Counted from the first letter of the stretch, positions 54,315 to 58,482 are shown. The stretch: 64,000 bases of DNA from Escherichia coli (GCF_003334385.1 NZ_QOWN01000006.1), one strand, 5' to 3'. Notes: generated by a model from the sequence alone, not told the origin. Numbers and translations: made by a program.

Positions 54315-55010
54315 TCAGCCAGCGGATGAAAACGCATCTATCACCTTGTGATCGACACCTTCATTCTCCCCCGCCAGTTCGGCACTGAGCTTCGCCATAA
54401 ACTCGACTAAAAAATGCGCGTTGTGCTGCGCCAGCTGCTTGCCTCTTGCGGTTTGCATGGTTTGCGGTAGCTTCAGCAACTTAGTCTGGAAATGATCCAG
54501 CGCGTAGCGTTTATCATCAAGCGGGCGATGCTGTGCGAGCGGATCTTCACCATCAAACAGCGCCACGCCCAATGCCCCTGAAACGGCAAACACGCGCGCC
54601 AGGCCAATCGCTCCCAGGGCTTCCAGCCGATCTGCATCCAGGACGATTTTAGCTTCCGTGGTTAAGGGGGCGATTTGCGCGCTGAAACTGTGAGCGGCAA
54701 TGGCATGACAAACGGCCTCAATTTTCTCCGCCGGAAATTGCACGAACTCTTCACGGAGCAGGCGACGCGTCTCTTCTGCTGCCAGGATTGAAGAACGCTG
54801 CCTTTGCGGATGATTTTTCGCCAGGCTCACAATATCGTGAAAATAACAGGCGGTTAAAATCACCAGCATATCGACGTCGTCATCTGCCGCCAGCTTCTGT
54901 GCCGTAGCCCAGACGCGGCGAAAATGACACACGTCATGGGCCGCGTCCTGGTGCTGATGATGGTTTTTCAACCAATTTTCGAACTGTGCCTGCCAGTGTT
55001 GTAAGTCCAT
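54315..55010 (-). CDS. yedJ: HD-domain phosphohydrolase YedJ (231 aa)
   Basis: ORF translation matches YedJ. Confidence 0.93.
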
Positions 55011-55049: not shown

Positions 55050-55415
55050 TTATTCATAGCGTCTGCTACGTGCGGGACGAGGTCGGGTGTACCAGGCAAT
55101 GCTGCCTAACAATGCCCCGACCAGAGCCATAAATAAAAATCCGACCAGTGCCCCTAACCACTTTCCCGCGGTAGAGCCTAAATCGCTTTCAAATCCCGAC
55201 ACGGGGGCATCGGGGATCCGGCTCATCACCCAGATGTAACGCGCCATTGCCCAGACGAAATAGCCACACCATGTATAGAAAGCCCACAAAGCCAGTTTGC
55301 CGCCAGGGCTGCGAGAGAGTCTCTCTTCCATCTTTGTCGAACCGTATTCCATTTTGAGATAACCCGGAAAATTCAGACTTAGTACTATTATGTGATAAAA
55401 GTCACATTTTTCCAC
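55050..55415 (-). CDS. yedR: Inner membrane protein YedR (start uncertain; ORF extends to 55433)
   Basis: ORF translation matches YedR; a GTG start at 55415 gives the 121 aa I recall for K-12. Confidence 0.8.
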   Translation of the reverse strand: MEKCDFYHIIVLSLNFPGYLKMEYGSTKMEERLSRSPGGKLALWAFYTWCGYFVWAMARYIWVMSRIPDAPVSGFESDLGSTAGKWLGALVGFLFMALVGALLGSIAWYTRPRPARSRRYE

Positions 55416-55643
55416 ATTGGATGAGCCAGTCAAGACTCACTCATTTTTTGAACAAATAGATAATTTTTGCGCAACGGCAGTGAATACAGGAAAAATCGTT
55501 TTGAGCGATTTTATTTATCTTTGATATCGGCTTTATTAATTCATTTAATCAATATATTAGCACTGATTACAATTATACCTTTTTATTATTCTGTGTCATG
55601 ATGCTTACGTTATTAGCCTTTTATCGTCTTGTTTATATTTTTT

Positions 55644-55669
55644 GGGCCGGCATGATGCCGGCTTTTTTT
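55644..55669 (+). terminator. Orphan plus-strand intrinsic terminator (GGGCCGGC-ATGAT-GCCGGC followed by T7) with no upstream plus-strand gene
   Basis: GC-rich hairpin 55644-55662 followed by TTTTTTT 55663-55669; nearest upstream plus-strand CDS is absent. Confidence 0.6.
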
Positions 55670-55980
55670 ATACCTTCATTAATGTGCGCGTGATCACACC
55701 AAGTGTTTAGCGCAACAATCATTGATACTCCCTATCTTTCCGCTTAACTCATAACATATTGATATACATTTATAATTTTCATGAATATTTATATTTGGAA
55801 TTCATGATTCTGAATTATATTAAATAGATTAGAAACATTTTGAAATCTTTTAAATACATTTGTTGCATGTAATCCTTAAAATAAAATGAAGTTCATAGAA
55901 TAGTATCCAAATGTGCTTTTTTTTGGATAACGGCACTTATTGATATATTCATGAAGATTATAATCACAAGGGAATACATA

Positions 55981-57039
55981 ATGAAAAGAAAAGTTCTGGC
56001 AATGCTGGTCCCGGCGTTATTAGTTGCTGGCGCAGCAAATGCGGCTGAAATTTATAATAAAAATGGCAATAAACTGGATTTGTACGGCAAGATGGTTGGT
56101 GAGCGCATTCTGACCGACCGTGAAAATGGTGAAAAAGGCGATAATTCTCAAGATACCTCTTATGCCCGTGTAGGCGTGAAAGGTGAAACTCAGATCAACC
56201 CTGAATTGACTGGTTACGGTCAGTTTGAACTAGACCTGGAAGCATCAAACAGACACAACCCTGACCAAACTCGTTTGGCTTATGCTGGTTTGAGTTACAA
56301 AGATTTTGGTTCATTCGACTATGGTCGTAATGTCGGTGTCGCGTATGATGCAGAAGCATTTACTGATATGTTTGTTGAGTGGGGCGGTGATTCATGGGCT
56401 GGTACTGACCTGTTCATGACCAACCGTACCAACGGTGTTGCAACCTATCGTAACACAGATTTCTTTGGCATGGTTGAAGGTCTAAATTTTGCTCTGCAAT
56501 ATCAGGGTAAAAATGAAGGTACAGGCAACTACAAAGCAAATGGCGATGGCCATGGTTTATCTGTAACTTACACTATTGACGGTTTCTCATTTGCTGGTGC
56601 TTACGCAAACTCTGATCGTACTGATTTCCAGTCTAGTGATAGTAAAGGTGAAAAAGCAGAAGTTTGGGCACTGTCAACAAAATATGATGCCAACAACGTC
56701 TATGCTGCTGTGATGTACGGTGAATCTCACAACATGAATTCCGACGACGGTGATGTTGTGAACAAAACACAAAACTTCGAAGTTGTTCTGCAATATCAGT
56801 TCGACTTCGGTCTGCGTCCATCCATCGGTTACTCCTATTCTAAAGCACTGGACGTAGCAGGTTACAAAGATTCTGATCGTCTGAACTACATTGAAATCGG
56901 TACCTGGTATTACTTCAATAAGAACATGAACGTATATACCGCTTATCAGATCAACCTGCTTGATAAGAGTGATTATGTTCTCGCTCATGGACTGAACACC
57001 GACGACCAACTCGCATTTGGTATCGTCTACCAGTTCTAA
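55981..57039 (+). CDS. yedS: Outer membrane porin YedS, intact (352 aa), OmpC/OmpF family
   Basis: Signal peptide MKRKVLAMLVPALLVAGAANA, trimeric porin hallmarks and C-terminal ...FGIVYQF; same position as the yedS pseudogene fragments of K-12. Confidence 0.93.
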   Translation: MKRKVLAMLVPALLVAGAANAAEIYNKNGNKLDLYGKMVGERILTDRENGEKGDNSQDTSYARVGVKGETQINPELTGYGQFELDLEASNRHNPDQTRLAYAGLSYKDFGSFDYGRNVGVAYDAEAFTDMFVEWGGDSWAGTDLFMTNRTNGVATYRNTDFFGMVEGLNFALQYQGKNEGTGNYKANGDGHGLSVTYTIDGFSFAGAYANSDRTDFQSSDSKGEKAEVWALSTKYDANNVYAAVMYGESHNMNSDDGDVVNKTQNFEVVLQYQFDFGLRPSIGYSYSKALDVAGYKDSDRLNYIEIGTWYYFNKNMNVYTAYQINLLDKSDYVLAHGLNTDDQLAFGIVYQF

Positions 57040-57083
57040 TCAGCCAACGCGCCGCGGCGTGTTACTGTAAAACTTAACACTAG

Positions 57084-57118
57084 CCTGAGTTCGTCCCTCA
57101 TCGAACTCAGGCTTTTTT
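57084..57118 (+). terminator. yedS intrinsic terminator
   Basis: Hairpin GCCTGAGTTCG-TCCCTCA-TCGAACTCAGGC followed by TTTTTT. Confidence 0.85.
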
Positions 57119-57630
57119 ATTGGCATTTTATCTCCCTCTGCGGCACGCGCAATTGCCAAAGCATATCGATACAGCACCTTACCCTGCCCCTGCTGGCACA
57201 ATAACATCTACCAGCGACTCTTCCAGCCAAGACCCAAATGCATTTCTTTATGAATTAATCTGCAACAAAACCGCCTCCCATATAGAAATATTTGCAAAAA
57301 TAGTGCATGAAATACGCTTTTTCTCTACCAATCCGGGATATAAATATTCATCAGCACCACAATATTCCACAGCACTAAATCTCTCCCCGTCGCCCCGTAC
57401 CTCTGATAATGGTCTAAAATCATTGAGGCCACTTGCGACGACGTTGCTCAATAAGGAAAATTTGGCGTGAATAATATTCAACACCAGTGCAGCATCATCA
57501 TTACATACTTACACCCGCCGACGACCGCTTTCGATATATTGACTCAATTTTCCAGCCTGGTTAAAAATAGCGACCAGCTCAGTCGAAAATATAGTGACTA
57601 CCCTAACTAAGCAACAATAAGGAATACACT

Positions 57631-58482
57631 ATGACTGTTCAAACAAGTAAAAATCCGCAGGTCGATATTGCTGAAGATAATGCATTCTTCCCTTCAGAAT
57701 ATTCGCTTAGCCAATATACCAGTCCCGTCTCTGATCTTGATGGCGTGGACTATCCAAAACCGTATCGCGGTAAGCATAAAATTCTGGTGATCGCCGCGGA
57801 CGAACGTTATTTGCCAACCGATAACGGAAAACTGTTCTCGACCGGTAACCATCCGATTGAAACGTTGCTGCCGTTGTATCATCTCCATGCTGCAGGTTTC
57901 GAATTCGAAGTGGCGACCATTTCCGGTCTGATGACCAAGTTTGAATACTGGGCTATGCCGCACAAAGATGAAAAAGTAATGCCATTCTTTGAGCAGCATA
58001 AATCGTTGTTCCGCAATCCGAAGAAACTCGCGGATGTTGTCGCCAGCCTCAACGCTGACAGCGAATATGCAGCAATCTTTGTTCCTGGTGGTCATGGCGC
58101 ACTTATTGGTTTACCAGAAAGCCAGGACGTAGCTGCTGCTTTGCAGTGGGCAATCAAAAATGACCGTTTTGTTATCTCCCTTTGCCACGGCCCGGCGGCT
58201 TTTCTGGCGCTTCGCCACGGCGATAACCCACTGAATGGTTATTCCATTTGCGCATTCCCAGACGCCGCAGACAAACAAACGCCAGAGATAGGCTATATGC
58301 CGGGTCATCTCACCTGGTACTTCGGCGAAGAGCTGAAGAAAATGGGCATGAACATTATTAATGACGACATCACCGGGCGAGTACATAAGGACCGTAAAGT
58401 TCTCACCGGCGACAGTCCTTTCGCAGCGAATGCGTTGGGTAAACTGGCGGCGCAGGAAATGCTGGCAGCTTATGCGGGTTAA
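57631..58482 (+). CDS. hchA: Glyoxalase III / chaperone Hsp31 HchA (283 aa)
   Basis: ORF translation matches HchA (DJ-1/PfpI family). Confidence 0.96.
   Translation: MTVQTSKNPQVDIAEDNAFFPSEYSLSQYTSPVSDLDGVDYPKPYRGKHKILVIAADERYLPTDNGKLFSTGNHPIETLLPLYHLHAAGFEFEVATISGLMTKFEYWAMPHKDEKVMPFFEQHKSLFRNPKKLADVVASLNADSEYAAIFVPGGHGALIGLPESQDVAAALQWAIKNDRFVISLCHGPAAFLALRHGDNPLNGYSICAFPDAADKQTPEIGYMPGHLTWYFGEELKKMGMNIINDDITGRVHKDRKVLTGDSPFAANALGKLAAQEMLAAYAG

Follow-up and report, generated by a model that had tools for sequence, protein, structure and literature searches.

The 64,000-nt stretch of Escherichia coli DNA analysed here (GCF_003334385.1 NZ_QOWN01000006.1; hereafter the window) contains a real, intact outer-membrane porin gene at the place occupied in strain K-12 by the yedS pseudogene. 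In the reading that we favor, with a probability of about 0.8, the gene is silenced under most conditions and would encode a working general porin that belongs to an OmpK35-like clade and represents one of at least four cassette-like allele classes at the yedS/ompS1 locus. The window allele, which we refer to as the A-type, reads as a common porin of a lineage distinct from that of K-12 and not as an undamaged K-12 yedS. NCBI already lists the exact 352-aa protein under the name 'porin [Escherichia coli]'. Both the family and the likely function of this protein are conventional, and the discovery is modest in that respect.

The ORF listing and the sequence agree on an uninterrupted plus-strand reading frame of 352 aa, running from the ATG at 55981 to a TAA at 57037–57039, and RefSeq annotates the same CDS, 1059 nt long, in a strain that is 99.9% identical. 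A Shine-Dalgarno-like motif is positioned ahead of this start codon (Table 1); an alternative in-frame ATG at 55951 would place 10 additional residues ahead of the signal peptide and is without a comparable ribosome-binding site. The N-terminus, MKRKVLAMLVPALLVAGAANA/AEIYNK, reads as a typical porin signal peptide that ends in an A-N-A cleavage site, as judged by eye and from the alignment, and the mature N-terminus AEIYNK aligns with the mature chains of OmpF, OmpC and PhoE. At the other end, the protein terminates in GIVYQF, with an aromatic Phe as the final residue. Residues 27–352 match the Pfam Porin_1 family (PF00267) over model positions 1–337 of 337 with E = 1.6e-110. The reading frame, the full-length family match and the terminal Phe confirm the original prediction of a full-length 352-aa porin of the OmpC/OmpF family with a signal peptide and a C-terminal aromatic residue. 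The hairpin of an intrinsic terminator begins 43 nt past the stop codon, and the opposite-strand ORFs inside the gene reach at most 111 aa and show no sign of being genes.

Table 1. Features of the porin locus, with positions counted from the first letter of the window
Feature	Position	Strand	Description
yedJ	54315–55010	−	Neighbour
drpB/yedR	55050–55331	−	Neighbour
rseX, Hfq-binding sRNA gene	55580–55669	+	Rfam RF01401 at 96.8 bits (gathering score 50; E = 3.5e-13)
AT-rich upstream region	55670–55980	+	311 nt, 27% GC, from the rseX terminator to the ATG; 91–99.5% identical across allele classes; must hold the promoter and 5′ UTR
Shine-Dalgarno-like AAGGGA	55968–55973	+	Read from the sequence; 7 nt 5′ of the ATG
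Porin CDS, A-type allele of the yedS/ompS1 locus	55981–57039	+	352 aa, of which 21 form the signal peptide
Conserved 5′ part of the CDS	55981–56064	+	Signal peptide (55981–56043) and first 7 mature codons; common to all classes
Variable cassette (mature porin body)	56065–57039	+	60–70% nt identity to other classes
Intrinsic terminator	57082–57119	+	Hairpin 57082–57113, 12-bp stem with 7 G-C pairs, then a T run
hchA	57631–58482	+	Neighbour

The gene order yedJ, drpB, rseX, porin, hchA is the order found around the K-12 yedS pseudogene. The small RNA gene rseX is the upstream neighbour of the porin in the same orientation, which we note as context only. The K-12 copy, the pseudogene b1964–b1966 (UniProt P76335), is annotated by PGAP as 'porin OmpC, frameshifted; internal stop'. 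In our own translation the lesions are one TAG stop and one frameshift, and repairing both yields a 397-aa protein. The expectation that K-12 carries a disrupted yedS at this position is correct on both counts, gene order and lesions. An intact porin was present in 9 of the 13 E. coli copies of the locus that we inspected, the window's included; far from being unusual, an intact gene at this position is common in E. coli.

The relationship to K-12 changes abruptly inside the gene. In a global alignment of the region from yedJ to hchA, scored in 50-nt windows, the two sequences are 95–100% identical as far as 56063, in codon 28. Identity then falls from 47/50 to 35/50 to 21/50, and from codon 28 to the stop it stays at roughly 40–75% per 50 nt with many indels. 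Across the stop codon (57011–57060) it is 40/50, and from 57061 it returns to 49/50. A megablast search with K-12 yedS aligned to the A-type over the first ~110 bases only. The alignment to the K-12 yedS fragments, which had been proposed as a check on the 'intact yedS' label, thus lacks species-typical identity past codon 28. The label holds for position, in that the gene occupies the slot between drpB/rseX and hchA, but it fails for descent, the mature body being too dissimilar from K-12 YedS (58–60% amino acid identity).

The same pattern of conserved ends and a divergent body recurs among E. coli strains. We computed segment identities between allele classes over ten E. coli loci that represent all of the classes. 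The yedJ–drpB segment (95–100% nucleotide identity), the upstream intergenic region (90–99.5%), the first 84 nt of the CDS (95–100%), the downstream intergenic region (93–98%) and hchA (97–100%) are all similar between classes, whereas the CDS from nt 85 to its end is only 60–70% identical. For the window allele itself, identity of the flanks to those of other classes is 94–100%. At least four deep porin lineages occupy the yedS locus in E. coli. The classes that we distinguish are (i) class A, the window type, with 352 aa (WP_000824370-like); (ii) class B, with 357 aa; (iii) class C, with 371 aa and 90% amino acid identity to B; (iv) a short form of the OmpC subfamily with 387 aa, found in ETEC-2264 and (v) the K-12 type, with 395–397 aa, which is intact in G8 and PCP06235 and a pseudogene in K-12 and O157:H7. 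As a side observation, the lineages at this slot differ from one another as much as OmpF differs from OmpC.

Allele frequencies were counted in 5426 complete E. coli genomes. The variable segment of the A-type is present at ≥95% identity in 1166 of them (~21%), divided between a subtype at ≥99% (638 genomes) and one at ~97% (528 genomes). The B-type is found at ≥95% in 743 genomes, the C-type, which is ~87% identical to the B query, in roughly 780, and relatives of the K-12 type with ≥80% query coverage in 1662. These counts place the A-type among the commonest alleles and bear out that an intact porin at the locus is common. Allele class does not follow the upstream haplotype: the yedJ–drpB segment of the window is 99.4% identical to that of one B-type strain, as compared with 98.8% for another A-type strain. 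This lack of coupling is consistent with a cassette that has been replaced through recombination near the gene.

Several lines of comparison suggest that the protein is very probably a functional general-diffusion porin. Among solved structures, OmpK35 is the nearest by sequence (443 bits, E = 1e-131), followed by the protein of entry 5o78 and by E. coli OmpF. An AlphaFold2 model built with 39 homologues has 16 main strands and a mean pLDDT of 77.5, and its confidence is no more than moderate in loops L2 and L3. The top Foldseek match for this model is OmpK35 (5o77; TM-score 0.87/0.91), and the scores range from 0.80 to 0.91 for the chains of OmpK35, OmpF, OmpC and OmpK36 that were listed. In the alignment, the window protein retains every one of the OmpF constriction residues (K16, R42, R82, R132, D113 and E117), and it has the same L3 motif, VEWGGD, as OmpK35.

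OmpK35 of Klebsiella pneumoniae (PDB 5o77, 9hn1) is 59–62% identical to the window protein, is similar in size and has short loops and the same basic and acidic constriction residues; the ~40% of residues that differ are found chiefly in the external loops. The three classical E. coli porins OmpF, OmpC and PhoE share with the window protein the Pfam family, the fold, the type of signal peptide, the strands, the L3 architecture and the C-terminal YQF, but their mature proteins are only 52–57% identical to it and they are encoded at different loci. Among the allele classes of the yedS slot, divergence is unevenly distributed. The strands of the A-type protein are 60–75% identical to those of other classes, L3 is 57–76% identical and the periplasmic turns are ~70% identical, whereas identity is ~35% in the remaining external loops, which account for nearly all of the indels. 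Loops L4–L7 of the A-type are the shortest among all classes. Divergence concentrated in this way in surface loops would be compatible with pressure exerted by phages, colicins, antibodies or antibiotics.

An important question for this model is when such a porin would be made. GC content is 27% in the region upstream of the gene, 43% in the porin CDS and 49.5% in the window as a whole, and a simple scan between rseX and the ATG found no consensus sigma-70 promoter. Such a composition is typical of H-NS targets, and K-12 yedS and the window gene probably share this AT-rich, H-NS-target-type transcriptional context. All classes have the upstream region and the opening 84 nt of the CDS in common, and any regulation through these segments would therefore apply to every class. 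The neighbouring rseX is reported to be repressed by H-NS and StpA (PMC8313858), and Salmonella ompS1 is described as encoding a quiescent porin, with H-NS as its silencer and LeuO relieving the repression (PMC4264507). By its base composition and by analogy with Salmonella ompS1 and rseX, H-NS/StpA probably keep the porin gene silent in laboratory culture, with the protein being made only under particular conditions or in regulatory mutants.

According to Warner et al. in 2013, control of YedS reportedly depends on MicF and MarA. We took MicF from K-12, with its sequence confirmed by an exact match, and evaluated its pairing with positions −80 to +60 of the gene against 300 dinucleotide shuffles. 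For the window gene the duplex energy within this interval came to −12.6 kcal/mol (z = +0.55), a value equalled or bettered by 206 of the 300 shuffles, and no direct pairing is predicted in the same interval of K-12 yedS either (z = +0.5). The positive control, MicF with ompF, gave −27.4 kcal/mol (z = −4.4) at the known site. A direct MicF site in the window gene is therefore without computational support between −80 and +60; an indirect effect of MicF, or a MicF site elsewhere, is possible. A predicted pairing of RseX with the 5′ region of the porin gene (−43 kcal/mol) was rejected as an artefact of the RseX poly-U tail on the A-rich start of the CDS.

An AT-rich promoter region of the kind typical of H-NS targets, together with the result of the promoter scan, could also mean that the ORF is intact but cryptic, never usefully expressed and with its pseudogenization yet to come. 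The tendency of the locus to decay points the same way: K-12 and O157:H7 carry disrupted copies, and even the A-type has an internal stop codon in ATCC 8739 and is disrupted by an IS3/group II intron in CDE2901. The locus thus decays readily, and the gene is accordingly dispensable. We nevertheless consider a cryptic ORF unlikely. The two A subtypes are separated by 20 synonymous and 10 non-synonymous differences, and the resulting dN/dS of 0.13 indicates that the A-type lineage is under purifying selection. Conservation extends to all of the constriction residues, to the signal peptide and to the C-terminal signal, and the 90%-identity cluster that contains the window protein, named merely 'porin' or 'hypothetical protein', holds 2356 sequences, with most of the members listed being full length. 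Evidence from related systems also argues for a useful product. Salmonella ompS1 mutants are reported to be attenuated in mice (PMC4264507), and an outer-membrane proteomics study detected, in a Shiga-toxin-producing strain, a putative porin only ~50% homologous to K-12 YedS (PMC9731836); if that porin is encoded at the yedS locus, divergent alleles can be expressed.

Where the A-type lineage belongs among enterobacterial porins is evident from neighbor-joining trees. Classes A, B and C group with OmpK35 and with porins of E. fergusonii, Citrobacter, Enterobacter, Leclercia, Kluyvera and Klebsiella oxytoca, whereas K-12-type alleles fall with OmpC, OmpF, PhoE and NmpC, so that the window protein and K-12 YedS are on opposite sides of the deepest split in the tree. 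The homologues in K. oxytoca, Citrobacter, Enterobacter and E. fergusonii adjoin dcm and an HD-domain yedJ homologue, and a called drpB gene is located beside the porin homologue in K. oxytoca and E. fergusonii. The presence of homologues at the same place in other genera makes the short type a positional orthologue across the Enterobacteriaceae. OmpK35 is the ompF-locus porin of Klebsiella, whereas the window gene is at the yedJ–drpB locus; in K. oxytoca, the yedJ–drpB locus holds a separate porin of 351 aa. The B-type, the C-type and the syntenic porins of E. fergusonii, Citrobacter, Enterobacter and K. oxytoca share with the A-type the locus, the clade, the L3 motif VEWGGDSW and the signal peptide, but they are only 66–69% identical to it. 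The E. coli B-type is 80% identical to the Citrobacter and Enterobacter proteins and 85% identical to the E. fergusonii protein. Because the B-type is nearer to proteins of other genera than to the A-type, the A-type is an outlying branch without a close relative outside E. coli.

These relationships bear on a second alternative, in which the gene was acquired recently from another genus and replaced a resident yedS by homologous recombination through the conserved gene ends. Sharp boundaries at codon 28 and at the stop codon, a GC content of 43% that is under the window average and nearest named relatives among the porins of Klebsiella, Enterobacter and Citrobacter all speak for such an event. 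We regard it as very unlikely, because the best match to the A-type outside E. coli, the K. oxytoca protein, is merely 69% identical, and no sampled genus can therefore have been a recent donor; transfer in recent times from a known genus is improbable for a type that has no sampled donor. The low GC content is also shared by all allele classes at the locus (43–46%), and the A-type lineage has already split into its 99% and 97% subtypes (dS = 0.09) and is present in 21% of genomes. Ancient import and long persistence in Escherichia fit the A-type data equally well. Differential loss of tandem paralogues, suggested by two adjacent porin genes in E. fergusonii, was considered and rejected: the second of these genes is not a K-12-type yedS but encodes a porin with an NmpC-type signal peptide that groups with a prophage NmpC-like porin, and a trkH-like gene comes after it.

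It is highly improbable that the window gene is simply an ordinary yedS without the K-12 lesions, with the K-12 fragments as its decayed copies. The two genes do lie in the same place and direction between drpB/rseX and hchA, with 95–100% identity in both flanks and over the opening 84 nt, so that K-12 YedS and the window gene have in common the chromosomal slot, the upstream region, the signal peptide, the downstream flank and the protein superfamily. From nt 85 to the stop, however, nucleotide identity is ~66% (60–70%) with many indels, and the mature window protein has 58–60% identity with K-12 YedS as reconstructed. The reconstruction, at 397 aa, is longer by 45 residues, and loops L4, L5, L6 and L7 are much shorter in the window protein. 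K-12 YedS is closer to OmpC, to the NmpC-like prophage porin and to PhoE (64–66% identity) than to the window protein. True intact relatives of K-12 YedS exist in other strains; these are 395 aa long and 88–90% identical to it.

The NCBIfam models separate the two types in the same way. Against cut-offs of 583 bits for OmpF (NF007446), 599 for PhoE (NF007544) and 484 for the OmpC subfamily (NF007841), the window protein scores 414.9, 407.8 and 391.8 bits, respectively, and falls below all three, whereas K-12-type alleles score 519.8 and 542.4 bits on the OmpC-subfamily model and are placed inside that subfamily. Relatives of the K-12 type among the matches listed come from E. coli and Shigella, with one additional cluster from E. 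albertii, and databases name these long alleles 'outer membrane protein S1' or 'yedS'. The identification of K-12-type YedS as the counterpart of OmpS1 derives from these names and from a sigma-E regulon analysis, in which yedS is equated with ompS1 and is among the repressed genes (PMC2731931).

Little credence can be given to a PhoE-type, solute-specific or anion-selective porin in place of a general one. In its favor, the PhoE score is nearly that of OmpF (408 versus 415 bits), and the third-best solved relative is 5o78, for which one library gives the name phosphoporin PhoE and the other Enterobacter aerogenes Omp35. Against it, the score is far under the 599-bit PhoE cut-off, an Asn (FMTNR) in the alignment replaces the Lys of the PhoE motif FMTKR, K125, which sets the anion selectivity of PhoE, and the gene is located away from the phoE locus.

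Our model of a general porin encoded by one of several interchangeable alleles can be described in terms of the protein and of the locus. The protein would be exported by the Sec pathway and assembled by BAM as a 16-stranded β-barrel with an L3 constriction loop, and we infer that three such barrels form a trimer. At the locus, allele classes would replace one another as a cassette, with the promoter region, the signal-peptide coding region and the 3′ flank remaining common while the region that encodes the mature protein is swapped, presumably by homologous recombination anchored in the common segments. The A-type would then belong with the syntenic, drpB-adjacent porins of the OmpK35-like clade and the K-12 pseudogene with an OmpC-subfamily, OmpS1-like class. 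A cassette pattern of this kind is familiar for surface proteins. In the part of the open literature that is searchable and that names yedS, we found no description of this allele structure.

A broader proposal, which we offer tentatively and at somewhat less than even odds, is that the yedS/ompS1 slot may hold a long-lived porin cassette polymorphism maintained by selection, in which at least four lineages are shuffled by recombination among genetic backgrounds and the A-type is an E. coli-specific, OmpK35-like, short-looped member.

When produced, the window porin would provide an outer-membrane route for small hydrophilic solutes, which may include β-lactams and carbapenems. One structural comparison reports a slightly larger constriction radius in OmpF and OmpK35 than in OmpC and OmpK36 (PMC7157821), which makes a β-lactam route through the window porin plausible. 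The original prediction also mentioned a connection in the literature between intact YedS and carbapenem permeability. A 2013 study that connects active yedS with carbapenem resistance (Warner et al.) does exist, and later papers cite it for 'marR inactivated and yedS active'. The carbapenem phenotype may carry over to the A-type allele.

The label 'yedS' hides several distinct porins, and statements that link 'intact YedS' to carbapenems must name the allele class. The same holds for genomic screens that score yedS as intact or disrupted against a K-12 reference, which must specify the class. If the A-type porin is expressed in isolates without OmpF and OmpC, residual permeability to β-lactams and carbapenems could change. 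If the cassette reading is true, the yedS locus would represent a compact natural system for the study of cassette exchange in surface proteins.

Among the E. coli porins there are some that fall between the allele classes defined at the yedS locus, as represented by two proteins recovered in the homologue search, P0008 and P0015. P0008 is 84–85% identical to the A-type porins, the class of the window allele, and 80% identical to the B-type. Such intermediate identities suggest, from comparison of the sequences, that these proteins may be mosaic alleles produced by recombination inside the gene.

The A-type allele is also found as a pseudogene in some strains, with the lesions in ATCC 8739 and CDE2901 described in the table below. 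In E. coli O157:H7 ECP17-1298 (L007 1570–1850), the yedS-locus porin and the adjoining drpB are both annotated as frameshifted pseudogenes.

Features at the yedS locus and in the loci compared with it
Feature	Sequence	Coordinates	Strand	Description
rseX, Hfq-binding sRNA gene	window	55580-55669	+	Rfam RF01401, 96.8 bits
rseX own terminator	window	55644-55664		
Porin-hchA spacer	window	57040-57630		591 nt
Spacer ORF	window	57120-57470	+	116 aa
A-type pseudogene, E. coli ATCC 8739	L020	282-1334		internal stop at codon 50 and 2-codon deletion
A-type pseudogene, strain CDE2901	L021	2382-3302		truncation by IS3 element and group II intron
Second porin gene, E. fergusonii	L015	6663-7772		369 aa; NmpC-type signal peptide MKKLTVAVSAVAASILMAMSAQA
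Prophage NmpC-like porin gene, E. coli O26 RM8426	L011	1197-2279		between lysis genes and quuD

The spacer that separates the porin stop codon from hchA is 93–98% identical over all allele classes, and its annotation is inconsistent between RefSeq genomes: some call a hypothetical protein corresponding to the window ORF in the table, and others a 64-aa hypothetical protein on the opposite strand. A search of the spacer against Rfam gave no match at E ≤ 0.01. In Escherichia fergusonii, the stretch from the drpB-adjacent porin to hchA contains two inserted genes, a second porin gene and a TrkH-like gene.

A megablast search with the porin gave weak matches, with 85% identity over 85 nt, to an NmpC-like porin gene carried by a prophage. 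The PGAP name for this gene in O26 RM8426 is also 'ompC'. In RefSeq, therefore, the name 'ompC' is shared by at least three distinct genes, namely ompC proper, the yedS of the K-type and the nmpC-like gene of the prophage.

Upstream, the porin ATG lies 311 nt downstream of rseX in the window, and the two genes have the same orientation. The RseX sRNA represses ompA and ompC. Thus, the gene for an sRNA with these targets is located directly beside an alternative porin gene.
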